Part shown: one piece after another, positions 10,879 through 49,946 of the stretch | Position numbering within the stretch: position 1 is the stretch's first letter | How the letters are laid out: each line of letters opens with the position of its first letter | Assembly: GCA_037442105.1 (NCBI GenBank) | Contig: JBBIQV010000013.1 | Location: 1-64,000, forward strand | DNA length: 64,000 nucleotides | Origin: Nitrospiraceae bacterium | GTDB taxonomy: Bacteria > Nitrospirota > Nitrospiria > Nitrospirales > Nitrospiraceae | Direction: 5' to 3' | Position numbers and translations under genes: made by a program | Notes under the pieces: generated by a model | Seen by the model: only the letters and a program-made list of their open reading frames with translations | The model's database searches: none | What the model was told of the DNA's origin: nothing

Positions 10879-10894
10879 AGCAAGGCCGATACCA
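10879..10894 (-). promoter_or_regulatory. Sigma54 -24/-12 promoter (bPH-mat-capA)
   Basis: TGGTATCGGCCTTGCT = GG-N10-GC. Confidence 0.7.
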
Positions 10895-10977
10895 TGTAAA
10901 CGGAGAGCGCAACGGGAGTAGCCCCTCGGAAAACCACGAGCTTGGAACAATAGGCCGGCCCGCATGCAAATCGTGCA

Positions 10978-11027
10978 TGGGATATCTTGCTACAATGCCC
11001 CTGCCCGCCATGTAGTGAAACGCCACA
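10978..11027. promoter_or_regulatory. Paired 17-bp enhancer-like palindromes
   Basis: TGGGATATCTTGCTACA (10978-10994) and TGTAGTGAAACGCCACA (11011-11027), 33 bp apart, between divergent sigma54 sites. Confidence 0.65.
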
Positions 11028-11134
11028 AGAACGGCGGACCTTCGGGCGCCAAGACCAGGCAGGGAGGGGGAGAAGATTGCGTTACCATCAGGCGTTCGAT
11101 CAGCCCGAGCAGTGACATTCACCACCTTACGGTG

Positions 11135-11150
11135 AGGCACCGGGTTTGCT
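11135..11150 (+). promoter_or_regulatory. Sigma54 -24/-12 promoter (pcm-mlaC)
   Basis: AGGCACCGGGTTTGCT = GG-N10-GC. Confidence 0.7.
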
Positions 11151-11163
11151 GATCAGTCGCTTC

Positions 11164-11931
11164 ATGAAGCTCGTTACTTTAGCGCTGTGGCTTGCGACCT
11201 TGCTCGCATTCCATTCGATCACTCTCATCCCGGGGTGCAGCACGGGCTCGCAGGGCAGCCCGCCGCCTGCCGATCCAGCCCGCCAAGCAGAGCGGGACCG
11301 GATGGTCGAGCAGCAGGTGCTGCCTCGTGGGATCAACAATCCGGCCGTTATCGCCGCCATGCGCCGTGTGCCACGCCATCGATTCGTTCCCGACACGTAT
11401 GCTTCAATCGCCTACGCCGACGGAACCCTCCCGATCGGCCACGACCAAACCATCACGCAACCCTCCCTCGTCGCCTTCATGACCGAAGCGCTCGCCTTAC
11501 GAGGCCACGAAAAAGTCCTGGAAATTGGAACCGGTTCGGGCTACCAAGCTGCAGTGCTCGCCGAAATCGCCTCCAAGGTGTATAGCATTGAAATCATCGA
11601 ACCACTGGCCAACCGGGCAACGCGCACACTGGCGGAACTCGGTTACAATAACGTCACGGTGCGGGTGGGCGACGGCTATCTGGGCTGGCCGAGCGAAGCA
11701 CCGTTCGACGCCATCATCGTCACGGCGGCACCCGATCACGTTCCCCAGCCGCTTCTCGACCAACTCGCGGTGGGAGGGCGGCTGATCATTCCAGTCGGTG
11801 AGTTCTTTTTCCAGCGCCTCATCCTGATTCAGCGCACGGCCAAAGGATATGAGCACACCGAACTGGTCCCAGTGCTTTTTGTTCCCATGACACGAGAAAA
11901 GCAGGCTGCCGATGTCGTCCAGCATCCGTGA
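11164..11931 (+). CDS. pcm: Protein-L-isoaspartate O-methyltransferase with signal-like N-terminus
   Basis: VPRHRFVP, QTITQP, VLEIGTGSGYQAA, GDGYLGWP, APFDAIIVTAA and FVPM motifs. Confidence 0.95.
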   Translation: MKLVTLALWLATLLAFHSITLIPGCSTGSQGSPPPADPARQAERDRMVEQQVLPRGINNPAVIAAMRRVPRHRFVPDTYASIAYADGTLPIGHDQTITQPSLVAFMTEALALRGHEKVLEIGTGSGYQAAVLAEIASKVYSIEIIEPLANRATRTLAELGYNNVTVRVGDGYLGWPSEAPFDAIIVTAAPDHVPQPLLDQLAVGGRLIIPVGEFFFQRLILIQRTAKGYEHTELVPVLFVPMTREKQAADVVQHP

Positions 11932-12593
11932 TTGCGGCAGCAGTGTTCATGAATAAGATGGGCAGTGTGAATCAGCCACAGTTCACGATCTTTCGCGCGA
12001 CTCTCGCCTGGGTAGGACTCGCCTGGTTATGGGTCTGCCCTGCCTTCTCGGATGTTGACCCCCCGACAGCGGTTGTCCGCGCTACGATCAACGAAGTGAT
12101 TCGCGTTCTTGAAGACGAGAAGTTGAAAGAGGCCAGCCAGTTGAAATATCGACGCCGCTTGCTCGAAGACGTCATCGCCCAACGCTTCGATTACACGGAG
12201 ATGTCCAAACGGACCCTAGCCGCGAACTGGACGCCGCTGACCGACGAGCAACGCAAGGAATTCGTGGAGCTGTTCAAAGCTTTTCTCTCGGACCGCTATG
12301 CCGCGAAGATCGAGGGGTATGCCGGGGAGCAGGTGGAGTATCTGACCGAACGGCTGGAAGGTCAGTATGCGGAAGTACGCACGAAGCTGGTCTCCAACAA
12401 GGTCGAGATCCAGATGGATTACCGGCTCATCAACAGAGCCGGGAAGTGGTACGCTTACGACATCATTGTCGATGGGGTGAGTCTCGTAAAGAATTACCGC
12501 AGCCAGTTCACCAACATCATTCGGTCCTCCTCCTATCGGGAACTCGTTCGCAGGTTGCGGGAGCGGACGGTGACCGAAGACAAAAAGGAATGA
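11928..12593 (+). CDS. mlaC: MlaC/Ttg2D-family periplasmic lipid-binding protein (start uncertain)
   Basis: FDYTEMSKRTL, W.AYDIIVDGVSLVKNYRSQF motifs. Confidence 0.9.
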   Translation: MIAAAVFMNKMGSVNQPQFTIFRATLAWVGLAWLWVCPAFSDVDPPTAVVRATINEVIRVLEDEKLKEASQLKYRRRLLEDVIAQRFDYTEMSKRTLAANWTPLTDEQRKEFVELFKAFLSDRYAAKIEGYAGEQVEYLTERLEGQYAEVRTKLVSNKVEIQMDYRLINRAGKWYAYDIIVDGVSLVKNYRSQFTNIIRSSSYRELVRRLRERTVTEDKKE

Positions 12594-12596
12594 CGG

Positions 12597-12836
12597 CTAG
12601 CCGGATGCGGGAAACTTCTTCAGACCTATCCGGCCGGCCAACTCATGCAGCTTTTCATGGACGGATTCGTTGTTATAGGTCTGTATGTCGGCTAAAGCCT
12701 GGCAATAGTCCGTCATCGCCTCGAGCCACACCCTCTGGTTCTCGCACGTCGCCGGCCCCTCGCGCGCCTGCGCGATCCGCAGGGATGCCTCGTTCAGCCT
12801 CGCTGCCGCCTCCTCCAGATGTCTTGGCACCGCCAT
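12597..12836 (-). CDS. Hypothetical protein (79 aa)
   Basis: GGAGG RBS before ATG 12836; helical composition. Confidence 0.7.
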   Translation of the reverse strand: MAVPRHLEEAAARLNEASLRIAQAREGPATCENQRVWLEAMTDYCQALADIQTYNNESVHEKLHELAGRIGLKKFPASG

Positions 12837-12876
12837 AGTTTCCTCCCCACCAGTGTGATGAATTATCGCACTAGGA

Positions 12877-13401
12877 TCACCGATAGGCAGCCAGCGTGCC
12901 GGACGCGGCTTCCTCCATGAGATCCTCGATGGTCCGGCTGGAAACCACGGAAGTCCGACATTCGTCGGTGATATCGGAGCCAGGCCGGGCAGCATCATCG
13001 GTCCGCTTGATCAGCAACCACTGCCTTGGGCGCCCTTTCATGCGCACCAAGGCAAACCGGCCCTGCAGCCGTTTTCCATGGAGGTTGAAATCGAGGGTCC
13101 CCATCTTGAGCATCGCTTCGGGGGAAAGACCGCCTTTCTTCCCATCCATCACTTCGAACCATCCCCTGTCCCAGACTAGAACCGGCCCCGCTCCATACCG
13201 CCCTTCTTCGATGATGCCTTCGAAATCGGCATACTTCAGATCGTGGTCGGCAACCTCCACAGCAAGCCGCTTCACAGACGGATCGAGCGACGGGCCCTTG
13301 GGAATCGCCCAGGATTTCAGCACCCCACCGATCTCTAACCGGAAATCATAATGGAGATGCGAGGCATGATGCTTCTGAACGTTGAAGATCGCATGCTTCA
13401 T
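12877..13401 (-). CDS. Stand-alone LigD 3'-phosphoesterase domain protein
   Basis: VQKHHASHLHYDFRLE, LKSWAIPKGPS, KRLAVEVADH, YGAGPV.VWDRG and WLLIK motifs. Confidence 0.93.
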   Translation of the reverse strand: MKHAIFNVQKHHASHLHYDFRLEIGGVLKSWAIPKGPSLDPSVKRLAVEVADHDLKYADFEGIIEEGRYGAGPVLVWDRGWFEVMDGKKGGLSPEAMLKMGTLDFNLHGKRLQGRFALVRMKGRPRQWLLIKRTDDAARPGSDITDECRTSVVSSRTIEDLMEEAASGTLAAYR

Positions 13402-13462
13402 ACCGTCCGCCACACACGATGCGTGATGAGTGAGGGTGCAGGCCGCCGCCCATCACGAGGCA

Positions 13463-13951
13463 TTACAGTTTGTAGCCAAACTGCCGGAGCAACGTCTTGC
13501 GATCGAGAATGTCCGCATCCTGTTCCACGCCTTTCGGTTTGAGCCCGTCCACGACACCGAGAATGCCCCGCCCCTGCTCCGTTTCAGCGAGAATCACCTC
13601 CACCGGGTTGGCTGTGGCGCAGTAAACGCCACAGACTTCCGGCACCTGGCGGATGGCGGATAGCACGTTAATGGGAAAACAGTTCTTCAGGAGGATCAGA
13701 AAGCTGTGCCCGGCTCCGACGGCAAACGCATTCGCCTTCGCCAAGTCGACCAACGCAGGATCTGTCCCGCTCCACCGTACGAGGCAGGGACCGGACGACT
13801 CACAGAAGGCCAATCCGAATGCGATGCCTGGCACGGTCGTCACCAATGCCTCGTGCAAGTCCTCCACGGTCTTGATGAAGTGAGCCTGGCCTAGAATGAG
13901 ATTCGTGCCGTCCGGTTTGTGAATAGGAACGGCAAGGAGATTGATTGACAT
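13463..13951 (-). CDS. Adenosine-specific kinase family protein (DUF355)
   Basis: NLILGQAHFIKTVEDLHE, FGLAFCESSG, CATANP and GRGILGVVDG motifs. Confidence 0.9.
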   Translation of the reverse strand: MSINLLAVPIHKPDGTNLILGQAHFIKTVEDLHEALVTTVPGIAFGLAFCESSGPCLVRWSGTDPALVDLAKANAFAVGAGHSFLILLKNCFPINVLSAIRQVPEVCGVYCATANPVEVILAETEQGRGILGVVDGLKPKGVEQDADILDRKTLLRQFGYKL

Positions 13952-14002: not shown

Positions 14003-14018
14003 AGCATCAGATGTGCCA
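14003..14018 (-). promoter_or_regulatory. Sigma54 -24/-12 promoter (DUF355-ligD PE)
   Basis: TGGCACATCTGATGCT = GG-N10-GC. Confidence 0.75.
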
Positions 14019-14136: not shown

Positions 14137-14185
14137 TGTCCAAAAACGCCACAGCTCTAGACCGAACCTGTAGCATCGCCCCCCA
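14137..14185. promoter_or_regulatory. Paired 17-bp enhancer-like palindromes
   Basis: TGTCCAAAAACGCCACA (14137-14153) and TGTAGCATCGCCCCCCA (14169-14185). Confidence 0.6.
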
Positions 14186-14452: not shown

Positions 14453-15325
14453 CTACCGGACGATCAGCACCGAACAGGCCGCATGTACCAGCACTTTCTC
14501 CGACACACTGCCGAGCAAAAATCGCTTGATCGCTTTCATCCCTCGCGATCCCACAACGATCATCCGTGCTCCATGCCGAACCGCCGAATCTAAGATGACA
14601 AAGGCTGGATCGCCGTGCAGCATCTCTGTCACCACCTCATAGGGCCCTTTCTTTAACTCATCGGCCATTCGATGCACGAGTTCTTCTCCTTTATTTGCAA
14701 CGAGATGCTTCAGGTCAACTTTGCCGCGTGACCCTAACGAGCGACCCATCCCTTCCGGTCCTCGCTGTGGCCAAACCGTCACGATCGTGGCATGAACAGG
14801 TCCCCTGAAAGGATAACGAATCAGAAACTGGACTGCCTTGTGCGACGACTCTGATCCATCCACTGCTACAAGGATCCGGTCCAGTTTGAGTACGGATCCT
14901 TTCACCACGAGGACGGAGCATGGCGCATAAGTAGCCACTTTCTGCGAGACCCCGCCGAGCAAGAACGACGGCGTGGCGGTCATCCCACGCTGGCCGACGA
15001 CGATCAGATCGGCATGAGACTCTTCGGCGGTTTGGATGATGCTCTCCGCCGCATCGCCCGTGTCGGCGATCAGTCGCACGTGACTGCAGGCATCAGCCAG
15101 CTCCTGCTTCATTTCATGCAGCACACGTTCCGCCGCTTCCGATACCTCCTTACGATAGGCCTCAAGATACCCGGCCGGCATCTCCGGCGAGATGTAGGCA
15201 TGCTTCAGCGCCTCCTCATCTACAACATTGAGAACATCCACAGCTAACGGTTCTGGGAAATGCCGAACCATGCGGGCGGCATTCTTCGAATCCGGTGATG
15301 CATCAACCGCGAGGAGAATTTTCAT
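14453..15325 (-). CDS. Tandem-domain universal stress protein
   Basis: Two Usp domains: KILLAVDAS...LLGGVSQKV and RILVAVDGS...FLLGSVSEKV. Confidence 0.95.
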   Translation of the reverse strand: MKILLAVDASPDSKNAARMVRHFPEPLAVDVLNVVDEEALKHAYISPEMPAGYLEAYRKEVSEAAERVLHEMKQELADACSHVRLIADTGDAAESIIQTAEESHADLIVVGQRGMTATPSFLLGGVSQKVATYAPCSVLVVKGSVLKLDRILVAVDGSESSHKAVQFLIRYPFRGPVHATIVTVWPQRGPEGMGRSLGSRGKVDLKHLVANKGEELVHRMADELKKGPYEVVTEMLHGDPAFVILDSAVRHGARMIVVGSRGMKAIKRFLLGSVSEKVLVHAACSVLIVR

Positions 15326-16959
15326 GGGCCCCTCTCTGAGCCTGTCTGCTCCAACAATTCTCTCACCAGACGGACCGGCAATGCCAGATGTACGCCGCTC
15401 ACTCGCTGCAAGGCGGCCTGGTTGACCGCGATGACAGCCCCGGCACGGTTAAAGATCGGTGCGCCGCTGCTGCCCATGGCAGACCCTGCTTCGTACGTCA
15501 GTACATCAGGCGCGACGTCGGAGACATGCCCCTGCGTCGCCAGGGGGCGAATCAAGCCGCGATGGGCTACTTCCTCGGCCAGCCTCACCGGGTCCCGGCC
15601 TCTCGTCGCAAGGATCTCCTTGGTAACAGCCGCCTCCCCGCGCGCGAGCAGGGTGTCTATGCTGCCGGGATAACTCAGCATGATGATCGGTTCGCCGACT
15701 CGCGCAATGTGGCCCTCCGAGGCTAGCGTCACCGGGAGAACTCCCGTCGGGCGCCGGTCCGTTCTCAACAACGCTAGGTCTGTTTTCTCAGACAAGGCCA
15801 CCAAGCGCAGCCGGTACGCCTCCGGCTGGTGAGGAAGAAACAGCCGCAGCAGGAGCATTTCCGGTTCGAAACCGGCGGCAATCGCCTGTTTCGCCGGTTC
15901 GAAGGACTCCCACATCCGCACCAGGTGTCGGTTCGTCATCACGGTGCCTTGCTCGTCGATCACAAAGGCGGTTCCCGCGAAAAAAATCGTGATCGGTGGA
16001 GCATGCCCCTCCACCGTGACCAATGTATTTCCCTTTTCATCTAAAAGCGGGTCGCCGCGGTCGTCGAAGCCCCGGTACCGCAATGGTCGGCCGGTCGCTT
16101 GCTCTCTGAATCCGTAGCTGCCTTGCAGAAGCCCGACCCCCTGCTCAAATCGGCGGGCGATCTCCTCAGCAAAGGTCTGTGTCTGCTGTAAGGCTGCGAG
16201 TTGCTCGCGAATCGCGCGAATATCTTCCTCAGGTTTTTGCTTTGCCTCTTGTTCCTTGAGCCGTTCCGTCAGAGTTGCGATTTCAGCTTCCTTCTGCCGA
16301 CGAAGTTCCGCAGCCGCTTGCCGTTCCTGCTCGATACGACGCTCCAGCTCGGCCTGGGTGAGACGCCCGGTCTCCAGTTGGCCGATCAACTCCGCCATTC
16401 GCTGTTTCGCCGTTACGCCGGCCTGTTGCTGGCGATATACGGCCACGCTCAGGACCACAATGATCGCCAAGGGAACCAGGACCAGAAGGGCGGCTCCCAG
16501 CTTGCCCAGTGGCGAGGCATGCACCGCAATGTCCGTCAGAACATGGCGAAGCAAATAGACGGGCGACAGAAAGCGAGGATGTGGCGTGCGGACCACGATA
16601 TCACGGGAGTCCACGACGATCGTGCGCAACGGTTTCGTCGCAGGAACACCATCCGGGGTGAGGCGGAACCTTACTTGTGGCCCATCATCGCCGAATTGGA
16701 TCAGATCCCCATCTTCCAGCGTGGCTTCTGTTTTACGTTCACCATTGACGAGCAACGCGTTCTTGCCGCTGCGGTCCCGGATCATGGGCGTGTGATCCAC
16801 AACGGACAATTCCGCATGGATAGGACAGACCGTCGCGTCGATGGTTGGATCGAACGCGATGCCGCAGTCCCCGCCGACCCCGAACGTCACGAAATCCGTA
16901 TCGATAAATTGGGTACGGCCTCGCAGACTGCCCGTGAGATACACCAGCGTCATCCGCAT
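15322..16959 (-). CDS. FHA-TM-coiled-coil-trypsin-like serine protease
   Basis: FHA-like C-terminal motif NALLVNG...LEDGDLIQFG; TM segment; coiled coil; triad TNRH, TDLAL, GSSGAP. Confidence 0.85.
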   Translation of the reverse strand: MRMTLVYLTGSLRGRTQFIDTDFVTFGVGGDCGIAFDPTIDATVCPIHAELSVVDHTPMIRDRSGKNALLVNGERKTEATLEDGDLIQFGDDGPQVRFRLTPDGVPATKPLRTIVVDSRDIVVRTPHPRFLSPVYLLRHVLTDIAVHASPLGKLGAALLVLVPLAIIVVLSVAVYRQQQAGVTAKQRMAELIGQLETGRLTQAELERRIEQERQAAAELRRQKEAEIATLTERLKEQEAKQKPEEDIRAIREQLAALQQTQTFAEEIARRFEQGVGLLQGSYGFREQATGRPLRYRGFDDRGDPLLDEKGNTLVTVEGHAPPITIFFAGTAFVIDEQGTVMTNRHLVRMWESFEPAKQAIAAGFEPEMLLLRLFLPHQPEAYRLRLVALSEKTDLALLRTDRRPTGVLPVTLASEGHIARVGEPIIMLSYPGSIDTLLARGEAAVTKEILATRGRDPVRLAEEVAHRGLIRPLATQGHVSDVAPDVLTYEAGSAMGSSGAPIFNRAGAVIAVNQAALQRVSGVHLALPVRLVRELLEQTGSERGP

Positions 16960-16976
16960 CGCAATCCACTCCCACC

Positions 16977-17110
16977 CAGCAGCGAACAGCGAATAGCAGG
17001 TAGCGAGCAGCACGGATCTCTGAGCTATGCACTGTTCGCTCTGGGCCGGTAGCCATCGGCTGTCAGCTATTCGCTATCAGCTATTGGCTGTTCGCTGCCG
17101 GCTATTCGCT
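16977..17110. repeat. Heptamer-periodic inverted repeat
   Basis: (AGCGAAC/AGCGAAT)n ... (CTATTCG/CTGTTCG)n between rtcA and the FHA protease. Confidence 0.7.
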
Positions 17111-18151
17111 CCTCTTTCTAAACCCCACCCCGTCAATCGTGAGCACCTGTCCGTCGACCCTCGCCTTGGCGCCGAGGAAGGTGTCGGCAAGCCAGATGCC
17201 AGTGAGGAGATGATCGGTGACGTGCGGAATACGAAATCGACTCTGCCCTTCTGCAAGTACGGCAAAGGGGACGATTTGGTCGGTGGCAAACCGATCCAGC
17301 GTGGCACCGGATTCGAGATCATCGAGGAGTTGCTGCGCGACGTGTTTGCCGATCGACTCCGCCGACCGCCGCAACGCTCCGGCTTGATCGGCGCCGAGTC
17401 GGATTGCGCCGTTCAACTCCGCGAACAGCGCCAAGGCCGCGCCTGGTTGGAGCGAATCCACGTCGTAGCGCACTTCGATCTCAGCCCGGTATCCGGCGCG
17501 ATCGAGGACGTGCCGAGCCGCCTCGGCCATGCGGTCGCTAACCCGGCGTGGCTCAAGATGAGAGGACAGCGATATCCCCCAGATGCGCCGGGGAAAGCCA
17601 AGGTGCTCAAGCTGGAGACTGTAGAGTGATGCCCGAACCGGGTTTGCCGATAAGTGCAGGATGCCTTCTCCTCTCGGCACATAGCCGGCGCGTCCCATCG
17701 TGATATCAGCATGAAGCCCCATTCGATTAAGCAACGGGACCATGACATGCTGGAGATGAAAGAAAGAAGGGGCAAAATCCTGAAACAGCCCGCCGCGGAG
17801 TTCCACATTCAACGCCGATGACGCGAAGGCCAGCACAGGCAAGATGGCCAGTCCCAGCATCGTCGTCGAGCCGGCGGTCCCAATATCCCACATGTAGTGG
17901 CGGCCTGTCTTGATCGAACCAGGATGGAAGATGAGTTCCTGCGAGCCAGGAGCCAGTCCTTCCGCTTTCCCGTTCACGAGATCGCGAATGGCTTCGACCA
18001 CGCGGATATGCTGATGGCGGAGACCCGGCTTAGGCCGGCGAATCCGAGCATTGACGATGTGGACCGGCTGTCCGGTCAGGGCCGAAAACGCCACGGCCTG
18101 GCGGATGATCGTCCCGCTACCGGAGTATTGGGAGCCATCAATCTCAATCAT
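17102..18151 (-). CDS. rtcA: RNA 3'-terminal phosphate cyclase
   Basis: IEIDGS..SGSGTIIR, RPKPGLRHQH, DIGTAGS, GYVPRGEG, DQIVPF and TDHLLT motifs. Confidence 0.93.
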   Translation of the reverse strand: MIEIDGSQYSGSGTIIRQAVAFSALTGQPVHIVNARIRRPKPGLRHQHIRVVEAIRDLVNGKAEGLAPGSQELIFHPGSIKTGRHYMWDIGTAGSTTMLGLAILPVLAFASSALNVELRGGLFQDFAPSFFHLQHVMVPLLNRMGLHADITMGRAGYVPRGEGILHLSANPVRASLYSLQLEHLGFPRRIWGISLSSHLEPRRVSDRMAEAARHVLDRAGYRAEIEVRYDVDSLQPGAALALFAELNGAIRLGADQAGALRRSAESIGKHVAQQLLDDLESGATLDRFATDQIVPFAVLAEGQSRFRIPHVTDHLLTGIWLADTFLGAKARVDGQVLTIDGVGFRKRSE

Positions 18152-18280
18152 AGATGCGCTCTCGGACCTTGCAGCAGCCCGGCGATCCGACTGTGGACGG
18201 GCTTCTAGCCCCCCGCACCGTCAAGATGCGGTTCAACCAGAGCCCAAAATTAACGGTTATACGCGGGGATGAGACAGAGG

Positions 18281-18505
18281 TTAGTTGAGGCGAGCGTTGC
18301 CGGTTCCAGCAAACAGCTTCTCGGCTTCGACTCGCGCAACCTGTTTCTGGCGATGTTCGATGATGACGGGATCGATCCGCTCGCCGCAGCTCACGCACCG
18401 CCATTCCACCATGCCGGTCTCGTGGACCTCTTCCGGCACCATCAGACCACCACAGCGATGGCAATGATCGATACGGACTTTCTTCTTTATGGACACAGTC
18501 GTCAT
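18281..18505 (-). CDS. Small zinc-ribbon protein
   Basis: CHRCGGLM...WRCVSCGERIDPVI (two CxxC); GAGG RBS. Confidence 0.8.
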   Translation of the reverse strand: MTTVSIKKKVRIDHCHRCGGLMVPEEVHETGMVEWRCVSCGERIDPVIIEHRQKQVARVEAEKLFAGTGNARLN

Positions 18506-18663: not shown

Positions 18664-18712
18664 TGGCGCGATTTTCCACTGACAACCCCCATGCCTGGTG
18701 AATTCTGCTACA
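18664..18712. promoter_or_regulatory. Paired 17-bp enhancer-like palindromes
   Basis: TGGCGCGATTTTCCACT (18664-18680) and TGGTGAATTCTGCTACA (18696-18712). Confidence 0.55.
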
Positions 18713-18795: not shown

Positions 18796-18811
18796 TGGTC
18801 TATGCCTTGCA
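18796..18811 (+). promoter_or_regulatory. Sigma54 -24/-12 promoter (acsA operon)
   Basis: TGGTCTATGCCTTGCA = GG-N10-GC. Confidence 0.65.
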
Positions 18812-18848: not shown

Positions 18849-20615
<1,767 letters not shown>

Positions 20616-24587: not shown

Positions 24588-24589
24588 AC

Positions 24590-25857: not shown

Positions 25858-25908
25858 TGAGGTAATTGGCAACAGAAAACCCGGGTAACGCTGACCCGAT
25901 ATTCCCCA
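25858..25908. promoter_or_regulatory. Paired 17-bp enhancer-like palindromes
   Basis: TGAGGTAATTGGCAACA (25858-25874) and TGACCCGATATTCCCCA (25892-25908). Confidence 0.5.
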
Positions 25909-26003: not shown

Positions 26004-26019
26004 TGGCATTTAGGATGCA
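26004..26019 (+). promoter_or_regulatory. Sigma54 -24/-12 promoter (hsp20 operon)
   Basis: TGGCATTTAGGATGCA = GG-N10-GC. Confidence 0.7.
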
Positions 26020-40561: not shown

Positions 40562-40571
40562 TGCCCGTGAG

Positions 40572-41801: not shown

Positions 41802-42703
41802 GCCTTCGCTCCTTGCGATTCCCGCTCCGCGAGCAGTGCATGGGTCGGGCACATCCCGACACAGTCCAGGCAGCCTTTGCAGTAATCGTAGTCGATGTCC
41901 GGCTTGCCGTCATCGCGGATCTTGATGACTCCTTCCGGACAATAGACAAAGCAGAGCCAGCAACCGTTGCACTTCTCCGGAATGAGCACCGGGCGGAAAG
42001 TCCGCCACGTGCCGGTCTTGCGGAGCGGTGCATTCGCACCGGCAGTGATCCGCGCGGTTCCTCGCGTCGGGGGCTCGTAAACCGGTGCCCACATGGCCGC
42101 TGTCTCTACCGTTTCGCGGGCGGCCTCGCGCACAGGCACAAGCAGGACCATGTCATAACAGCGCTCGGCCAACGTCTGACTCTGCTCGATCACGGTGCGG
42201 TCCAAGCCAAGATCGGCCAGTTCCCTTGCGACAGCCTCGCGGACCTGCACGATGCCCAACCCAAGCAGCCGCGCTGCCACGGCCCCGAGTGGCGCGCTCA
42301 ACGCATGAAGTTTATCGAATTGCCGGATGACCAGATCCGTCAGATCCAATGTCGTCACATGGCCGAGGATGGACGTCTCCGTAAAGAGCTGCTCCGGAGA
42401 CTTCACGCTATTCACAAACACCGCCGTATGATCCGTTACGCCCTCCAACACGCGAGCCGCTGGATCCGCCAGCAATGACTCGTCCGCTGCTACCACAAGA
42501 GCCGGTCGAGCGATCATGCCTCGCTCGCGAATCGGGTCTCGGCTGATCCGCGTAAAGGCCGCTACCGGAGCCCCTCGCCGTTCGGCTCCGTAGATCGGTG
42601 AGTCTTGAGCTTGATAGCCTGCCAAGAAGGCTGCCGTACCTACGATGCGGCTGGCCGTTTTTGCGCCTTGTCCGCCTCGTCCATGGAATCGGACGGCTAG
42701 CAT
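41798..42703 (-). CDS. porC: Fused gamma/delta subunit of 2-oxoacid:ferredoxin oxidoreductase
   Basis: RFHGRGGQG, YGAERRGAPV; C-terminal TGTWR..RP with two CxxCxxCxxxCP motifs. Confidence 0.92.
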   Translation of the reverse strand: MLAVRFHGRGGQGAKTASRIVGTAAFLAGYQAQDSPIYGAERRGAPVAAFTRISRDPIRERGMIARPALVVAADESLLADPAARVLEGVTDHTAVFVNSVKSPEQLFTETSILGHVTTLDLTDLVIRQFDKLHALSAPLGAVAARLLGLGIVQVREAVARELADLGLDRTVIEQSQTLAERCYDMVLLVPVREAARETVETAAMWAPVYEPPTRGTARITAGANAPLRKTGTWRTFRPVLIPEKCNGCWLCFVYCPEGVIKIRDDGKPDIDYDYCKGCLDCVGMCPTHALLAERESQGAKA

Positions 42704-42707
42704 GCTC

Positions 42708-43064
42708 TTACTTCCTCAACGCCGCTTGAAACTCCCTCGCCTGAGCGCAGGACATACATACCGCCGCCGCCGGAAGCGCTTCCAGCCTGGAAAGCGGGAT
42801 CTCCTTCCCGCAATCTTCACACCGTCCATATTGGCCGGTCTCGATCTTCACCAATGCGCGGTCGATAGCCTCGATTTCCGCCTTTAACCTGGTATCCATG
42901 CGGTCGAAGAACTGAATCATTTTCTCATCCTGCCCGCGCTCTTCCATTTCGCGTTCGGCATCGGTTTCCAGCCACAGGAGGTCTTCTTCCGTGGACGCCG
43001 CTTCCCGAAAAAGCTCGCGACGCTGCCCTAACAGCTTCTTGCGCAAATCATCGAGTGGAAGCAT
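42708..43064 (-). CDS. TraR/DksA C4 zinc-finger protein
   Basis: IDRAL.KI..G.YGRCEDCG..I...RLEALP....CMSC. Confidence 0.92.
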   Translation of the reverse strand: MLPLDDLRKKLLGQRRELFREAASTEEDLLWLETDAEREMEERGQDEKMIQFFDRMDTRLKAEIEAIDRALVKIETGQYGRCEDCGKEIPLSRLEALPAAAVCMSCAQAREFQAALRK

Positions 43065-43100
43065 AGCCCTTCACCTCCAGCCTAATGAGAGACTGCCGGT

Positions 43101-43403
43101 CTACTTCACCAGCTCTTTCTTGAAGGCCTCCTTCCCGGCTTCAAAAACAGCCGCAACCATCGCCTTCTTTTCACCGAGAAACTCTTTGCTTCGCGCGATG
43201 GCCCCATCCAGTTCGGCCTGAATCTCTCCGGCCTTCTCCGCTAGCTCCTCCTCCGCTCTATGCGCATACCCCTTGATCGCCCGGCGGGTCTCTTCTCCCG
43301 ACCGTGGCGCCAACAGAATCCCGCCGATCACGCCCAAGAGCGCCCCGCCCAGAAATGCGTACGCAACCGTCATTGCCGAAATCCGCCCCTCCTGATGCGC
43401 CAT
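43101..43403 (-). CDS. YtxH-domain protein
   Basis: FLGGALLG...GILLAPRSGEETR motif. Confidence 0.9.
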   Translation of the reverse strand: MAHQEGRISAMTVAYAFLGGALLGVIGGILLAPRSGEETRRAIKGYAHRAEEELAEKAGEIQAELDGAIARSKEFLGEKKAMVAAVFEAGKEAFKKELVK

Positions 43404-43441: not shown

Positions 43442-43457
43442 AGCGAAGGATATGCCA
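43442..43457 (-). promoter_or_regulatory. Sigma54 -24/-12 promoter (ytxH-dksA-por-hemerythrin)
   Basis: TGGCATATCCTTCGCT = GG-N10-GC. Confidence 0.7.
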
Positions 43458-43549: not shown

Positions 43550-43599
43550 TGGGGCATTCCAGAACTGATAGGCTAGCGATGCTGTCCCAAAAGGCGACA
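43550..43599. promoter_or_regulatory. Paired 17-bp enhancer-like palindromes
   Basis: TGGGGCATTCCAGAACT (43550-43566) and TGTCCCAAAAGGCGACA (43583-43599). Confidence 0.55.
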
Positions 43600-43701: not shown

Positions 43702-44091
43702 CTATCCGGTGAGTTGAATGGTCACCGCCGGCGGCACGGCGAGGGATTGATGGACCGTACAGCCATGCGCAACTTTCACCAATCGCTCGCGATGTTCCGG
43801 TCGAATGTGAGGAAGATGAATAGCGAGGTTGATCCGGCCGATTCGATGCGGATGTTCAGCCATCGCCCACTCCGCGTCCACGATCAGTTCCTCGCAGGGA
43901 ATCTGATGCCGCGCGCAATAGCGCCCGACAAAATATCCTACGCAACTTGCCAGCGAGCCGACAAACAGCTCGACGGGACTCATGCCGGCATCGTGACCAC
44001 CATCGGCGACCGGCTGATCGGTCACGATTCCGTGGGCTCCGCTGGCGACATCAAACCTGGTCCCGCCACGGAAGACGACGCTCAGCTTCAT
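43702..44091 (-). CDS. OsmC/YhfA-family protein
   Basis: DQP...GG.D.G.SPVEL...SLASC ... CTVHQSL (two Cys). Confidence 0.92.
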   Translation of the reverse strand: MKLSVVFRGGTRFDVASGAHGIVTDQPVADGGHDAGMSPVELFVGSLASCVGYFVGRYCARHQIPCEELIVDAEWAMAEHPHRIGRINLAIHLPHIRPEHRERLVKVAHGCTVHQSLAVPPAVTIQLTG

Positions 44092-44141
44092 GACATCCTC
44101 CTCCGGCTCAGTGCGCGAACGGCGCCCCCATCGTCATCACA

Positions 44142-44984
44142 TCAATACGGAGAATCCTGTGGCTTGCCGCCTTTCGGCCAGTCGTGGACTTTTCCCGGAA
44201 AATCCGGACGCGGCTGACTGTTGATATAGGCGGCCACATCGTACGCATCGTCGTCTGAAATCGACCACCCCCAGCCTCTTGGCATGTTCGCTTTGATGAA
44301 GGAGGCTGCCACGCTGACCCTCGCCATGCCGGCGCCGATGTTGTAGGACTGCGGCCCCCAGACGGGAGGAGCCGCCACGGTTCCCTGCCCATCAGAGCCG
44401 TGGCAGAAGACACACTTCGCCGCGAACACTTTTTTGCCGTTGGCGGGATCCGGTTGGCGGCTCGGGTTGATCCGTGGGATTCCTCTCCAGGGAATCTTGC
44501 TTCCCGGTGGAATACCCTGAGAGAGCCACTCGATGTATGCGACCACCGCCTGAAGCTTGGAACTATCCGGCGTGAGGAGTTTGCCGTTCATGCTGCGTTC
44601 AAAACATTCATTCACCCGATCGGCGAGGCTCATCTCTCGGCCGGCGCGTGCCCGATATTCCGGGTATACGACACCAAGTCCTACATATGACGCAGCATTC
44701 GGGTTGAGCCCTGCATCCAGATGGCAGTTCGCGCAGTTGAGCGCGTTCCCCACGTAGGGCTTGGCATATTCCTGGGTATTGACCACGATCTTGTACCCCA
44801 AGCGAACCTGTTCACCGCGTTGATCACCCGGAATCGTTTCCGGAGATGGCGGGGAAAAGACGGCATCAAGGGATGAAGATCGCCTTGAGTCGGCATGAGA
44901 TTCCTGTCGATCTTGTGCGCCCTGCCATCCGAAACAGCCACCGAGAAAGGCGATGGTGAGAAGGACGGGACCGAAACGACTCAT
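44142..44984 (-). CDS. tsdA: Diheme cytochrome c, thiosulfate dehydrogenase TsdA-like lipoprotein
   Basis: GNALNCANCH, RVNECFERSMNG (ligand/catalytic Cys), CVFCH, PPVWG..SYNIGAGM, ANMP; LGGC lipobox. Confidence 0.85.
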   Translation of the reverse strand: MSRFGPVLLTIAFLGGCFGWQGAQDRQESHADSRRSSSLDAVFSPPSPETIPGDQRGEQVRLGYKIVVNTQEYAKPYVGNALNCANCHLDAGLNPNAASYVGLGVVYPEYRARAGREMSLADRVNECFERSMNGKLLTPDSSKLQAVVAYIEWLSQGIPPGSKIPWRGIPRINPSRQPDPANGKKVFAAKCVFCHGSDGQGTVAAPPVWGPQSYNIGAGMARVSVAASFIKANMPRGWGWSISDDDAYDVAAYINSQPRPDFPGKVHDWPKGGKPQDSPY

Positions 44985-44996
44985 GCCGTTACCTTT

Positions 44997-45012
44997 TGCG
45001 ATCCATGTGCCA
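44997..45012 (-). promoter_or_regulatory. Sigma54-like -24/-12 site just upstream of tsdA
   Basis: TGGCACATGGATCGCA = GG-N10-GC; would give a near-leaderless transcript. Confidence 0.5.
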
Positions 45013-45038
45013 AGAACGGAAAGGATTCGGGACCCTTG

Positions 45039-46433
45039 TTATGAGCTTCGTTTCAGACTAAGCATGTAACTCGTCAAGTCGTTCAGTTGCTGATCGTTCA
45101 AGGGAAACTTCGGCATGAAGGAACCAGGCGACACCGACTGCGGATCGCGGAAATGACGCAGGTGCCATTCACGCTCGGACCTGGTGTCCCCAACGTACGA
45201 CAGATCGGGCCCCACCGCTCCGCCTTCCCCATGAATCCGATGACAGCCCGTGCAGCCGAACTGCGCAAGGAGCGCTTTACCTCTGGCCACGGCGGGGTCC
45301 GCACGAGGCACCGCATAGAGCTCGCGCAGTGAGACTCCCAGCAGGATAAACACCACCACGAGGAAGGCCGCCCCGGAAGCCAGGGCGACCGGGCGCTTCG
45401 TCGGATGGCGCGCGGGATTCCGGTCAATGAACGGCCAGAAGAACAACCCCAGGAAGAATAGCGCCGGCAGAATCCAGGTGGCCAGCGGCTCCAGCGGCCC
45501 GTGCACGTACTTTAGCAACTGGTAATAGAAGAGGAAATACCACTCGGGCACGGGCACGAAGCTGGTGTCGGAGGGATTAGCCTTGTCGGCCAGAGGGAAG
45601 GAAACGGCCAGGGCCAGCAGCGACACGGCGGCGAAGATGCCCAGCATGACCACCGCGTCCATGAACACCTGCCGGGGATAGAAGGGCTCGCTGACTCTCA
45701 CCCGCCGCTCGATCCATCCCGGGCTACCGGGTCCACGCTGTCCTTCTCGTGGCACGCTGCTCTCGCTCTTGCGGCGTTCGACTCCCCCGCGCCAGGGACC
45801 GGCCGGCCCTACCCGCCGGAGAACGAACAGGTGGAGCAGGATCAACACAGCCAGTGTGGCCGGCAGGAACAGCACGTGCACTGCGAAGAAGCGGGACAGG
45901 GTCATCGCGCCGAGCATCTCCCCACCCCGTAACACGGGGGCCAGCAGATCACCGACGACCGGCACCGTTCCGACCATGTTGATGCCGACCTGCGTGGCCC
46001 AGTAGGCGTTCTGATCCCAGGGCAGGAGGTAACCGGTGAACGCGAAGCTCAGGGTGATCAGGAACAGGACGACCCCGACCATCCACATTACTTCCCGGGG
46101 CGGTTTATAGGCCCCGTACAGAAACACCTGCAACATGTGGAGACCGATCGCCACCACCATGGCCGAAGCACCCCAATGATGGAGCCCGCGGACGAAGGCG
46201 CCGAAGGTCACTTGCGTTTCGATGAACTTGATGCTGTCGTAGGCATGATCCGGCGTAGGGGCGTAATAGATCGCCAGGAACATGCCGGTCACGGCCTGCA
46301 TCACGAACAGGAACAGGGTGGCCGAACCGAACACGTAGATCCAACTCGCGCCGCCGGGAATCGGCTCGTCGAGCAGAGTCTTTTCAATCGGCTTGAGTTT
46401 GAGTCGGCTGTCGAGCCAGTCGTAGAGTCGCAT
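45039..46433 (-). CDS. petB: Cytochrome b (bc complex) fused to a C-terminal cytochrome c
   Basis: RGLHHWGAS, FTGYLLPWDQ, RFFAVH, PEWY; C-terminal CTGCH and GSFMP. Confidence 0.93.
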   Translation of the reverse strand: MRLYDWLDSRLKLKPIEKTLLDEPIPGGASWIYVFGSATLFLFVMQAVTGMFLAIYYAPTPDHAYDSIKFIETQVTFGAFVRGLHHWGASAMVVAIGLHMLQVFLYGAYKPPREVMWMVGVVLFLITLSFAFTGYLLPWDQNAYWATQVGINMVGTVPVVGDLLAPVLRGGEMLGAMTLSRFFAVHVLFLPATLAVLILLHLFVLRRVGPAGPWRGGVERRKSESSVPREGQRGPGSPGWIERRVRVSEPFYPRQVFMDAVVMLGIFAAVSLLALAVSFPLADKANPSDTSFVPVPEWYFLFYYQLLKYVHGPLEPLATWILPALFFLGLFFWPFIDRNPARHPTKRPVALASGAAFLVVVFILLGVSLRELYAVPRADPAVARGKALLAQFGCTGCHRIHGEGGAVGPDLSYVGDTRSEREWHLRHFRDPQSVSPGSFMPKFPLNDQQLNDLTSYMLSLKRSS

Positions 46434-46446
46434 GAGTATTGCTGGC

Positions 46447-46528
46447 TAGAGGTAAAGGGTGAGGGGCGAGCGTAGAATCTTTCCCAAGACTTTTAACCTC
46501 TTGCCCCGCGCCTCTTGCCTCTTGCCTG
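46447..46528. repeat. Heptamer-periodic inverted repeat (GAGGNNN)n...(NNNCCTC)n
   Basis: AGAGGTAAAGGGTGAGGGGCGAG ... CCTCTTGCCCCGCGCCTCTTGCCTCTTGCCT. Confidence 0.6.
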
Positions 46529-46530
46529 TC

Positions 46531-47082
46531 TCACAGTTCCACCGCCGCCGCCAGTCCCGACTTGTATTCCTTGTACATCACCAGTAGGCGACCGTTTTCG
46601 ATCTTCACGGGCAGCCTGTCCAATCGTCGCGGGGCCGGGCCGGCCAGGACCGTTCCTGCCGCATCGTACACGCTCCCATGGCAGGGGCACTTGAATTTCC
46701 GGTCCCCTTCATCCCACCGGTAGCCGCAGCCGAGGTGCGTGCAGATGGGAGAAAAGACCGTCACCTGCCCGTCGGCCTGCTTAACCGCCCAGATGGCTTT
46801 ATGGGACTTGGTTTCCATCCAACCATCACGGATTGTCGTGACGTAGTCGAGTTGTTTCGGTTGACCGACCGGCAGATCATCCACGCCGCCGACATCAATC
46901 CAGGGCCGCTCCCGCCGCTTGAGTGCAGGCGAGACGACGTATCCCACCAAGGGAATCGCGAGCCCGAGCCCGATTAATCCCGATGCCAGGCCGATCATCC
47001 ACTGAAAAAATTTCCGGCGCGAGCCGACAGGAGTAGGCAATGCCGGCGCACCGCAGTCGGCGGGTTTTCCCTCTGTATTCAT
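46531..47082 (-). CDS. petA: Rieske iron-sulfur subunit
   Basis: Tat motif SRRKFF, TM helix, CTHLGC, CPCHGS.Y and GPAPRRL. Confidence 0.95.
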   Translation of the reverse strand: MNTEGKPADCGAPALPTPVGSRRKFFQWMIGLASGLIGLGLAIPLVGYVVSPALKRRERPWIDVGGVDDLPVGQPKQLDYVTTIRDGWMETKSHKAIWAVKQADGQVTVFSPICTHLGCGYRWDEGDRKFKCPCHGSVYDAAGTVLAGPAPRRLDRLPVKIENGRLLVMYKEYKSGLAAAVEL

Positions 47083-47882
47083 GGTATCCCCACAACGAGT
47101 TTGACGACATTGTGCACGATCAGCAGCAGACCAATTGTGATGGCCAGCCCGGCAAACGTCTTCGTTGTGCTCGCTGCCGACACGAACCGCCCCATTCTCG
47201 CCCCCAGGACCATTCCCATCGCTCCGCCGACCATCAGGAGCGCCAAAAGACGGCCATCCATTCCGCCGAACTGTACATGGCCCGCAAGCCCGGTGAGCGA
47301 GATAAACGCAATGATCAGAAGCGAGGTGCCTACCGCGACCCGAATCGGGAAGCCCAAGACCAGGGTGAGCGAGGGAACAATCACAAATCCTCCGCCGACG
47401 CCGAAGAATCCCGTCAGTACACCAACCGATGCACCGATACCACTCAGTTTCAGCACGCAGGCGCGCGGGAATCGGTCTGCACATTCCACCTGTGATTCGC
47501 TGCTGCTCGGTGACATATGCCCCCGCAACCACATTGCCACAGCCACGATCGCCATGAGCAGACCGAACAGCACAAGCGTAATCTCTGGCCGAACCAACAG
47601 ATGGAGATACGCACCGATCCAGGTCCCGATCGCTCCTGTAACGCTAAAAATCACTGCCGCTCGAACCTTCACCTCTCCAGTCCGTCGAAAGTCCAGCACC
47701 CCGATCAGCGCTGAAGTCCCGACAAGAGCCAATGACATGACGACGGCCTCGCGTACGCCTCTGCCGAGGACGTAGACCAGGAGTGGGATAGCCATCAGCG
47801 AGCCTCCGCCCCCCGTCATGCCCAACGATAGACCGACGAGTCCACCGGATAGGAGAGCCAGACTCCATTCCTCGATAAGCAT
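47079..47882 (-). CDS. TauE/SafE-family sulfite/sulfur-compound exporter
   Basis: GMTGGGGSLMAIP and GFFGVGGGFVIVP repeats, AVGTSL; about 8 TM helices. Confidence 0.92.
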   Translation of the reverse strand: MLIEEWSLALLSGGLVGLSLGMTGGGGSLMAIPLLVYVLGRGVREAVVMSLALVGTSALIGVLDFRRTGEVKVRAAVIFSVTGAIGTWIGAYLHLLVRPEITLVLFGLLMAIVAVAMWLRGHMSPSSSESQVECADRFPRACVLKLSGIGASVGVLTGFFGVGGGFVIVPSLTLVLGFPIRVAVGTSLLIIAFISLTGLAGHVQFGGMDGRLLALLMVGGAMGMVLGARMGRFVSAASTTKTFAGLAITIGLLLIVHNVVKLVVGIP

Positions 47883-47996
47883 CACGATCCCGCGCCCCTG
47901 CGCGATTTGTCTGGTGCGCCTCTCGCCGGCTGGTCTCGCAGATCCTCGCCATCAACGATACTCTTCGACCAATCGACTATTTGGTCCGATATCGGC

Positions 47997-49244
47997 TTAC
48001 GCGGGTTGCTCGAGTTTCGTGATCCCCATCGCCTTGAGAATGGCTTTCTCAAAGTACGGCTCGCTCACGCCCCGCTTCATTTTCTGTAGGAAATATCGTT
48101 CCAGCGCGATCTTGGCAAGGTGGACCCACTTGCCCTTCTTGGCCCAGGTCACGTTACGCGGCGCCATTTGCGGCAGAGCCACAAACGCCACGCCCGTGTC
48201 CCCCATGTCGGCAAGGCAAATTGCGTTCCAGGTGGCGGTCTCACGTTTGGGATCGTTCTCGATGTCGGCTATGATGTTGTGGACGGCGGCCGACACCATG
48301 GACTCGATCATGTACCCGGTTTTCGGCGCACCGGTGGGGATCGGCGTCTGCTCAACCGGCGGAATTGCCACGCATACGCCGACCGAATAGATGTTCCCGT
48401 ACCTTGGGTTAGCCTGATAGGCATCGATATGTACAAAGCCCTTCGGATTGCACAATCCAGGTGTACCGGCCACCGCGTCCACACCGGCGAACGGCGGGAT
48501 AAACATGGAGTAACGGAAAGGAATCTCCTGTCCGTCTTCCAGAAGAACCTTCCCTGGCTGTACTTCTTTGATGGCAACGTTCGAGATCGGTTTGATGGAG
48601 TGTTCGGCAAATTCATCCTCCATCAAGCGGCGAGATTTGCCGACTCCGGCAAGCCCCATGAGGCCGATGTACGGCTCTGGAGTGACGAAGTATATCGGAA
48701 CCTTCTTCCGCAGTTTCTTCTTGCGGAGGTCGGCATCAAGGATGAACGCCATCTCATAAGCCGGTCCAAAGCAGGAGGCCCCTTGAGCCGCGCCGACAAC
48801 GATGGGCCCCGGGTCCTTCAGGAACGCCTGATAGGCACCCCAGGCTTGTTCCGCATGGTCCACGGTGCAGATAGATTGGGTATAGCCGCTCGGTCCCAGT
48901 CCTGGCACTGCCGAGAAATTCAGTTTCGGCCCGGTGGCGATGATGAGGTAATCGTAGGGTACCTCGCCCTTGGATGTGACGACGCGATTCTGTTCCGCTT
49001 CGATCCGTTCAGCGGCGGCATGAATGAACTCGACCCTTTTTTTCTCCAACACGGGGCCAAGCGGGAAGCTGATATCTTTTCGCGTTCGCCAACCCACGGC
49101 CACCCAGGGGTTCGACGGCACGAAGTGGAAGTAGTCGACATTCGAAATCACGGTGACCTTGTGTTTTTTGTCCAGCAACAGGCGGGATTCATAGGCTGCC
49201 GGCAACCCTCCGATCGACGCACCAATGATGACTACTCGTGCCAC
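47997..49244 (-). CDS. sqr: Sulfide:quinone oxidoreductase (type I-like)
   Basis: FVPSNPWVAVG, SICTVDHA, GASCFGPAYE, PKTGYMIESM and NAICLADMG motifs. Confidence 0.93.
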   Translation of the reverse strand: MARVVIIGASIGGLPAAYESRLLLDKKHKVTVISNVDYFHFVPSNPWVAVGWRTRKDISFPLGPVLEKKRVEFIHAAAERIEAEQNRVVTSKGEVPYDYLIIATGPKLNFSAVPGLGPSGYTQSICTVDHAEQAWGAYQAFLKDPGPIVVGAAQGASCFGPAYEMAFILDADLRKKKLRKKVPIYFVTPEPYIGLMGLAGVGKSRRLMEDEFAEHSIKPISNVAIKEVQPGKVLLEDGQEIPFRYSMFIPPFAGVDAVAGTPGLCNPKGFVHIDAYQANPRYGNIYSVGVCVAIPPVEQTPIPTGAPKTGYMIESMVSAAVHNIIADIENDPKRETATWNAICLADMGDTGVAFVALPQMAPRNVTWAKKGKWVHLAKIALERYFLQKMKRGVSEPYFEKAILKAMGITKLEQPA

Positions 49245-49350
49245 GAGTTGCTCCTTCGTTAATCCTCGTCAACCGTCAATCGTCATCCGGGATTTGGGAG
49301 TAATGCGTCTGTCCCCCGATTGGCGGATGATCAATAACGAATGACGATAT

Positions 49351-49560
49351 TCACTGCGGTTTTGTCGGACAGGTGTTGATCCCGATCAACTGCCACGCCG
49401 GACAGTAGCCGATTGTTCCCGTCACAAGCGCGACAGCCCCAACCACGAACGCAATCCCCATCCCCCATGCAGGCAAGCTCCCAAACGCCCCGATCGCCAA
49501 CAGCGCGAGGCCGATGATGATCCGGATTGGCCGTTCTACTCCTCCCACGTTACAGGTCAT
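49351..49560 (-). CDS. DUF2892/YgaP-like small membrane protein
   Basis: CNVGGVER.IR ... TG..GYCP...L.GINTC. Confidence 0.9.
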   Translation of the reverse strand: MTCNVGGVERPIRIIIGLALLAIGAFGSLPAWGMGIAFVVGAVALVTGTIGYCPAWQLIGINTCPTKPQ

Positions 49561-49798
49561 GGCACCCCTCCTTGTTATCTGTTATCCATCTCCCGCACTT
49601 CTTGACGGTAAGCGAGAAGCGGTCGCTTCCCTTAATTCTGTTCCGTATGAGTCACCGACTCCAAAATGGATTCGCCCTCCGAAAGGAAAAATCGTCGCCT
49701 CCCGTTCGGTCGGAAAACAGTACAGGACATGGCAAGTCGTGCATCGGGTCGTAATGAATGATAGAGAGCCGATGCGACCGCATATCAAACAAAGAACT

Positions 49799-49814
49799 TG
49801 CGACTGGCATGCCA
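49799..49814 (-). promoter_or_regulatory. Sigma54 -24/-12 promoter (DUF2892-sqr operon)
   Basis: TGGCATGCCAGTCGCA = GG-N10-GC. Confidence 0.65.
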
Positions 49815-49895
49815 CTGCCGGTCGCGTCTGAATCACAAAACCACATGCACTGACGAGGGGTTAGAGAAGTAGGGAGAGCGCCTGCGCGAGTTCGG

Positions 49896-49946
49896 TGGAG
49901 ACAAATGCGCCAGCAACATCACAACCCCCTGGCGCAAGATGCTACA
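49896..49946. promoter_or_regulatory. Paired 17-bp enhancer-like palindromes
   Basis: TGGAGACAAATGCGCCA (49896-49912) and TGGCGCAAGATGCTACA (49930-49946). Confidence 0.65.

Follow-up and report, generated by a model that had tools for sequence, protein, structure and literature searches.

In the mycobacterial DosR regulon, genes for universal stress proteins (USP) and Hsp20 and metabolic genes are governed by a LuxR-type regulator, with no sigma54 enhancers, and the FixL-FixJ system has a second regulatory tier, FixK/NifA. The closest working analogue of the system described here is NmpRSTU of Myxococcus xanthus, a sigma54 hypoxia regulon with a heme-binding kinase and an NtrC-like activator (PMC11841059). 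Sigma54 oxygen regulons of this general type thus have a known precedent in Myxococcus. Partial likenesses exist to FixL-FixJ-FixT of Caulobacter and rhizobia (PMC7078487), to the Burkholderia lxa genes (PMC3721108), to OrpR of Desulfovibrio vulgaris (PMC8359166) and to TspS-TspR of Acidithiobacillus caldus (PMC6335251). Here we analyse a window of 64,000 nucleotides from a Nitrospiraceae bacterium (assembly GCA_037442105.1, contig JBBIQV010000013.1, positions 1 to 64,000), in which tandem pairs of imperfect 17-bp palindromes stand upstream of sigma54-type -24/-12 promoters (GG-N10-GC). A conserved sigma54 regulon of this kind in Nitrospira is real, and we regard the regulon itself as virtually certain. 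The pairs are conserved upstream elements of sigma54-type promoters and, as judged from sequence, are likely bound by an NtrC-type response regulator (activator A) that would be switched on at low oxygen by a heme-PAS kinase. The system is likely to be a previously undescribed case of heme-based oxygen sensing.

We use the term cassette for a pair with starts 32-34 bp apart followed by a -24/-12 site. On contig C44 of the same genome a cassette is flanked by two enhancer-binding proteins, A (receiver-AAA-helix-turn-helix; C44:7515-8894) and B (Cys-PAS-AAA-helix-turn-helix). The gene order is A, a heme-PAS-type histidine kinase adjoining A (C44:4415-7489), the cassette, a lone receiver, B and a multicopper oxidase. 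NmpRSTU resembles this system in its heme-binding-type kinase, its NtrC-like sigma54 activator, its tandem palindromes with GCGCA-like half-sites, its induction by hypoxia and its targets, which include USP, CBS and hemerythrin genes (PMC11841059). However, in the NmpR sites the centre is five bases and the distance between sites 14-15 nt, whereas here a three-base centre is set in TG...CA flanks and the starts are 32-34 bp apart. Moreover, Nmp employs a protoglobin kinase, the hybrid kinase NmpS and the double receiver NmpT (PMC11841059), whereas here one kinase, usually with a FixL-like PAS, directly follows the activator, and a single lone receiver and a second activator lie downstream. Since both site geometry and wiring differ, identity with the NmpR system was rejected. 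The palindrome GCGCA-N5-TGCGC (up to two mismatches) was found within 260 bp of none of the 8 window promoters, and among the cores of 422 sites N3 occurred 197 times and N5 29 times. The organisms named among the best 120 homologues of A all belong to the Nitrospira group, NmpR itself not being in that comparison, and the Atlas clusters that match A are generic, some of them from Myxococcota.

FixL-FixJ-FixT shares with the present system a heme-PAS kinase with its proximal His, a lone receiver within the regulon and a second regulatory tier. In contrast to FixL-FixJ the output here is a sigma54 AAA+ activator and the equivalent of Arg220 is mostly absent, and in contrast to FixT the lone receiver has no C-terminal four-cysteine motif. 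The Burkholderia lxa genes are similar in that USP, Hsp20 and metabolic genes are clustered, and a BCAM0308-family gene is present in our window (27475-27975; 217 bits against a cut-off of 100 for this lxa family model). The content of USP, Hsp20 and BCAM0308-type genes places the window with lxa, and USP, CBS, Hsp20 and hemerythrin genes all lie within its operons, so the likeness to the lxa and DosR regulons proposed in the first-pass annotation is sustained. The lxa motif, on the other hand, is FNR/Anr-like (TGA-N6-TCA) and not a sigma54 enhancer. TspS-TspR, likewise a sigma54 two-component system ahead of sulfur-oxidation genes, has a site that resembles the window site at 43583. Unlike here, it controls sox genes in response to thiosulfate, and TspR was rejected as the same regulator because its site is 16 bp long. 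The 17-bp motif was not met in the accessible parts of work on N. inopinata hypoxia (PMC6478695), the CRP/FNR meta-regulon (PMC8510549) or the Desulfovibrio sigma54 regulome (PMC4641369).

Genes were called with a dicodon model and then annotated. All motif scans used a symmetric matrix from the 12 window sites, with the tested pair omitted where stated, so divergent cassettes may be missed; the sigma54 matrix was built from consensus frequencies that we took as given. The six pairs and the eight GG-N10-GC sites were all present where the first-pass annotation had located them, with start-to-start spacings, in window order, of 33, 32, 32, 34, 33 and 34 bp. Since the pair at 10978/11011 is common to the divergent promoters 10879(-) and 11135(+), the six pairs serve seven promoters. 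The -24/-12 elements are correctly oriented ahead of genes, and helically phased tandem palindromes lie upstream in the 80-150 bp range looked for in sigma54 regulons. At the seven promoters 81-118 bp separate the proximal 17-bp site from the -24 element, and the proposed distance of about 80-170 bp holds for them. It fails for the eighth site, 44997, where no pair was found within 200 bp and the best single site scored -0.4 bits.

The proposed enrichment over other intergenic DNA was borne out. With the tested pair left out of the matrix, the pairs scored 19.9-29.2 bits, and other intergenic positions scored that high 0-3 times in ~954,000 at 32-34 bp spacing and 0 times in 5.08 million at off-spacings. 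At a spacing of 31-35 bp we counted 14 cassettes in the genome, of which 7 are window cassettes, and 0 after block shuffling. Taken over 211 cassettes outside the window, which are not independent of one another, the consensus is (C)TG[T/G]NGC[A/G]-N3-[T/C]GCN[A/C]CA(G), close to the TGNNGCA-N3-TGCNACA described at first. Ahead of the receiver-B operon the enhancer-promoter gaps cluster at 60, 70-73, 81-83, 91-94 and 103-108 bp, and over the 211 cassettes the best period is near 11 bp; such steps of about 11 bp are the signature expected of a looping enhancer. Matches to an integration host factor site between enhancer and promoter were limited to 2-mismatch ones, in 4/7 spacers.

The motif is conserved at orthologous genes. 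A cassette was found at acs in 9/12 relatives (leave-one-out matrix; two truncated loci excluded) and upstream of hsp20 in 13/19 orthologues as against 1/9 paralogues. Ahead of the receiver-B operon it was seen in 19/19 loci including this genome under relaxed thresholds, and in 68/68 loci with kinase and receiver (of 80 loci) versus 0/1360 shuffles, the spacing in the 68 being 32-34 bp only. The adenosine-kinase-like gene behind the 14003 promoter had a cassette in 0/6 relatives examined, where the gene sits inside operons. The predicted conservation is thus confirmed for acs and hsp20 and fails for this gene.

A strict form of the pair pattern occurs in 149/251 genomes, compared to 9/251 for the reversed pattern. 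By hand count it is present in 144/209 genomes with A and in 5/42 without A, and 2 of these 5 do hold the C-terminal part of A. Cassettes also form islands: a 120-kb stretch of genome G011 has 17 and one of G019 has 12 rows (two rows share one promoter), and these precede USP, Hsp20, CBS, acs, SQR-like (sulfide:quinone oxidoreductase) and cytochrome genes. The regulon, first described as a ~39-kb feature, is instead order-wide. The alpha subunit of the window's 2-oxoacid:ferredoxin oxidoreductase (POR) had no match at 1e-60 in the five family-f2 genomes searched.

It could be argued that the pairs are chance matches to a degenerate motif that was trained on the same sites, all the more as off-phase spacings still yield 2-6 cassettes per genome at each spacing; for this reason several of the 7 extra matches in the genome are probably chance. 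We consider this exceedingly improbable for the pairs as a whole in view of the leave-one-out scores, the helical phasing, the complete conservation at the receiver-B operon against none in shuffles and the excess of genomes with the strict pattern over the reversed one. For the conserved promoters the conservation counts already refute it.

The genome encodes rpoN and 17 full enhancer-binding proteins, of which A and B were compared for their presence across genomes. This, and the candidate on C44, agrees with the idea that tandem enhancers serve one activator encoded outside the window. A has the marks of a sigma54 activator, i.e. receiver Asp, GAFTGA-type loop and helix-turn-helix. The loop reads GAFTDA or GSFTDA in 80/80 copies, a variant that is active, and the helix-turn-helix pattern is kept in 79/80 loci. 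A is present in 209/251 genomes of the order; its C-terminal part was found in 83/301 genomes of the phylum, just one of them outside the order. With two exceptions its closest relatives are from Nitrospira, Nitrospiraceae or Nitrospirota, and it falls below the NCBIfam cut-off for the best 25 models, including AtoC, ZraR, NtrC, NtrX and GlrR. General autoregulation of A is not supported, since a cassette lies upstream of A in 3/74 loci only. Directly upstream of A and divergent from it is a mutagenesis cassette of LexA-like, ImuB-like and DnaE2-like genes (L035:9288-14088 on G000:C44; annotation by eye).

The motif adjoins the A-kinase pair in three families, where it stands either just past the kinase gene or in the interval that separates A from a divergent UspA gene. 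The A-kinase pair of family f2 is part of a UspA island and has strong enhancer pairs adjoining it. In 7/8 A-bearing genomes of genus g25 the cassette is directly downstream of the kinase, in six of them before the oxidase. In the same g25 group the N-terminus of B was matched in 0/35 genomes; the best match to its C-terminus is A itself in G040, and in three other g25 genomes it is a 43-46% match, compared to 52% for true B. We favour A over B because in g25 the cassette is kept without B, because, where B is present, the oxidase promoter lacks the cassette and has its own palindrome, and because of the pairs in the f2 island; on these sequence comparisons A is very probably the activator acting on the 17-bp pairs. 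The same adjacency in three families makes it very improbable that a third, unlinked enhancer-binding protein fills this role, as does the oxidase, which lacks the cassette in 5/5 genomes where A was not found (it may be a different paralogue there). Such a protein would be one of sixteen other candidates in the genome, and the recognition helix of C3:52283 is similar.

B may be regarded as the other candidate, i.e. an OrpR-like cysteine-PAS protein that regulates its own operon and senses redox through an Fe-S cluster. The cassette directly ahead of the receiver-B operon in all 68 loci would suit such a role, as would the three invariant cysteines of B and the OrpR site, likewise a 17-bp palindrome with GCG half-sites (PMC8359166). 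Nevertheless, cassettes persist in 7/8 g25 genomes where B was not found and the promoter adjoining B has a different motif, so we hold this reading to be very unlikely, to nearly the same degree as that of a third activator. We retain A as the candidate for the 17-bp pairs.

In B itself, a PAS-like domain contains three Cys that are invariant and a fourth that is nearly so; PAS_4 was recognised in 11/17 B members, and the invariant Cys are spaced x10-x2. By analogy B is predicted to carry an Fe-S cluster. Its N-terminal profile had no meaningful PDB match. OrpR resembles B in having a PAS with conserved cysteines followed by AAA+ and helix-turn-helix domains, and in the acidic residue that usually stands two after the first Cys. 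However, the OrpR spacing is C-x8-C-x3-C, a pattern that B does not share (PMC8359166), and B, unlike OrpR, apparently depends on another activator for its induction and has a multicopper oxidase gene downstream.

The oxidase promoter after B has a sigma54 site, with a cassette in 1/34 loci only, and a conserved 18-bp palindrome of the TGTCYA-N6-TRGAC type. The palindrome is seen at G000:C44:1992-2076 (L035) and in the oxidase promoters of ~30 relatives, usually in two copies ~66 bp apart, and is likely the site of B. The large multicopper oxidase is 1,630 aa long and only distantly like MnxG (125 vs 3100 bits). G133, G146, G052, G120 and G095 each have two to four paralogues of 1,630-1,720 aa; some of these are arranged in tandem, and several carry the B-type motif.

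The sensor of the proposed system is the kinase next to A. Its first PAS domain aligns with structures of FixL and DosP, the proximal His included, and 13/14 PDB matches are FixL/DosP heme-PAS domains, two of which we take to be DosP. The proximal heme-ligand His is kept in 81/81 aligned copies (87 loci). Of the six unaligned kinases two have a protoglobin and four a more distant PAS that bears a His there (by eye). In G029 and G032 (2/87 loci; L088:8200-9504 and L091:8354-9649) the protoglobin replaces the heme-PAS, so that, on these domain assignments, one type of heme sensor has been exchanged naturally for another. The kinase scores below the cut-off of the whole-protein FixL model (307 vs 850 bits), and its partner is an AAA+ activator, not FixJ.

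Published data on N. marina point in the same direction. In the accessible part of that study, on which all N. marina statements here are based, 93 proteins are up at low oxygen, in clusters around UspA genes (Bayer et al., PMC8115632). The island of G120 has the same gene order as N. marina and mostly the same gene lengths. Mapped in this way, the A-like regulator is raised 4x, the kinase 7x and the UspA neighbour of A 263x; for the POR operon, which a cassette precedes, the rise is 6-34x, for two members of the hsp20-led operon 24x and 34x, and for the oxidase after B 16x, at the top of its table. A CBS gene without a cassette changes 1.3x, not significantly. Neither B nor the island hsp20 could be found in the N. 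marina protein table.

The mechanism we propose is as follows. Low oxygen would release the heme kinase, so that A becomes phosphorylated. Two dimers of phosphorylated A would bind three helical turns apart on one DNA face and oligomerise, and the oligomer would reach the sigma54-polymerase by a DNA loop across 60-120 bp, so that the promoters open. The predicted targets of A are protein-repair and stress, chaperone, acetyl-CoA/2-oxoacid carbon-redox, respiratory, hemerythrin and sulfur-oxidation genes. A may also induce the lone receiver, which is most like A's own receiver and is a likely phosphate sink (feedback), as in FixT, and B, the cysteine-PAS activator predicted to carry an Fe-S cluster. 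B would then bind the other palindrome, that of 18 bp, and turn on the large multicopper oxidase as a second gate. The complete scheme, i.e. a two-tier, all-sigma54 oxygen cascade of Nitrospirales in which a heme kinase (FixL-like PAS or globin) acts on A, and A on an Fe-S-gated B that fires only at lower oxygen and drives a giant multicopper oxidase, is put forward tentatively, at somewhat less than an even chance. If it is true, nitrite-oxidising and comammox Nitrospira would have this cascade as their master oxygen switch, and the oxidase would be marked as a low-oxygen enzyme.

Several observations weigh against this reading. The strict pattern misses all 35 g25 genomes, and the conservation counts overstate independence because the relatives are kin and some loci are duplicated. 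Near A no cassette was found in G056, G075 and G434; G058 has only a weak one, and those of G052 and G087 have a longer gap. The N. marina data were mapped by gene order and length, not by sequence, and the mapping took in ~20 of the 93 induced proteins and left out the type VI secretion cluster. In these data one UspA of the hsp20-led cassette operon rises just 2x, which is not significant, and a gene induced 114x has a sigma54 site and no pair at the standard geometry. A similar His-bearing PAS is found in four other proteins of this genome. The distal Arg (FixL Arg220) is present in 24/80 kinase copies only and is Gly in this genome, so the ligand could be nitric oxide (NO), CO or redox. 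Polarity is not fixed by sequence either, since globin kinases such as NmpU are active with oxygen (PMC11841059).

The same regulon with activator A could accordingly be run by a kinase that senses NO, CO or redox, or that is active in air. The 56/80 copies without the Arg220 equivalent and the oxygen-activated globin kinases would fit this, and so would the NO made by nitrite oxidisers (PMC6478695, accessible part) and the extra PAS domains that vary among genomes. The swap of PAS for globin, however, suggests a heme-bound gas as the signal, the gene set matches known low-oxygen regulons, and in N. marina the syntenic operons are induced at low oxygen. We therefore think such a signal unlikely, and low oxygen probably the on-signal, as far as sequence can suggest it.

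No published description of the regulon in Nitrospira was found in the full-text literature, a coverage that leaves out most subscription journals. The N. marina study ascribes its low-oxygen clusters to UspA, and its main text, in the accessible part, mentions neither a two-component system nor the oxidase (PMC8115632). In soils, aquifers, oceans and treatment plants Nitrospira are the dominant agents of nitrite oxidation and of complete nitrification, and they persist there at very low oxygen. Their oxygen sensing had been an open question, and it is now directly testable: the analysis names a candidate regulator, a sensor, two motifs and a predicted gene list for cultured strains, and gives a lead on the function of the so far uncharacterised 1,630-aa multicopper oxidase.

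Within the window, the first pair (10978..11027; sites 10978 and 11011) is placed between two divergent promoters. The sigma54 site at 10879..10894 (-) precedes an operon of bPH_2, archaeal-type methionine adenosyltransferase and PGA_cap genes (8020-10853), and the bPH_2 homologue in G120 and G146 is likewise preceded by a cassette. The methionine adenosyltransferase gene, at 9106-10314, is thus within the regulon. The site at 11135..11150 (+) precedes PCMT and MlaC genes (11146-12593). Pair 2 (14137..14185; sites 14137 and 14169) serves the site at 14003..14018 (-), ahead of the adenosine-kinase-like gene and a LigD 3'-phosphoesterase (12597-13951).

Pair 3 (18664..18712; sites 18664 and 18696) belongs to the sigma54 site at 18796..18811 (+), which heads the genes at 18849-25523: acetate-CoA ligase first, then 2-oxoacid dehydrogenase E1a/E1b/E2, SnoaL, ACP-like (acyl carrier protein) and RlaP. 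The E1/E2 set is pyruvate-dehydrogenase-like and without E3, and is followed by the ACP-like protein and the RlaP nucleotidyltransferase. Divergent from pair 3 is the rtcA-FHA protease-USP operon (14453-18505), which encodes a small Cys-rich protein, RNA 3'-phosphate cyclase, an FHA-trypsin protease and a USP, and has no sigma54 site of its own. Pair 4 (25858..25908; sites 25858 and 25892) lies ahead of the site at 26004..26019 (+) and the hsp20-led run at 26093-38969, taken as a single transcript, with genes for Hsp20, phosphoribosyltransferase, the lxa BCAM0308-family protein, CBS, HAD, cupredoxin, USP, cytochrome c and acyl-CoA ligase/GNAT.

On the other strand, pair 5 (43550..43599; sites 43550 and 43583) serves the site at 43442..43457 (-) and the genes at 39063-43403, i.e. 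YtxH, DksA-like, the four-subunit-type POR and hemerythrin. YtxH in G011 is preceded by the same cassette. Pair 6 (49896..49946; sites 49896 and 49930) is the top-scoring pair of the genome and serves the site at 49799..49814 (-), with genes at 43702-49560 for YgaP-TM, an SQR-like flavoprotein, TauE, Rieske, cytochrome b-c, a TsdA-like protein and OsmC. The SQR match of the flavoprotein is below cut-off; its orthologue in G011 is preceded by a cassette. The orphan sigma54-like site at 44997..45012 (-), ahead of a TsdA/SoxA-like cytochrome c gene and without a pair, is likely a relic, and the G011 orthologue of this gene has a full cassette.

Among the extra cassettes of the genome, C44:4265 is firm. 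C4:97023 (CBS) and C9:78861 (CRP/FNR) have partial support, the latter with a cassette in 3/7 homologues. The CRP/FNR protein behind C9:78861 is cysteine-rich (L038:4123-4893; G000:C9:79122-79892) and is possibly a FixK-like third tier. C4:98859 heads a run of cytochrome c, Rieske, cytochrome b and V-type ATPase genes. This run (L036:9032-18639; G000:C4:99031-108638) comprises cytochrome c, a membrane protein, a second Rieske/cytochrome b pair and a V/A-type ATPase operon, and the equivalent island of family f2 has an alternative F-type ATPase. A one-component PAS-LuxR regulator with several cysteines in its PAS (L036:2662-3360; G000:C4:92661-93359) adjoins hydrogenase-4-like membrane subunits and small cupredoxin-like genes. 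Finally, the window is variable at positions 256-7387, a region that encodes ankyrin and Sel1 proteins together with a DUF6531 (RHS-type) fragment and repeated small open reading frames; a PemK-like gene lies inside it at 5769-6098.

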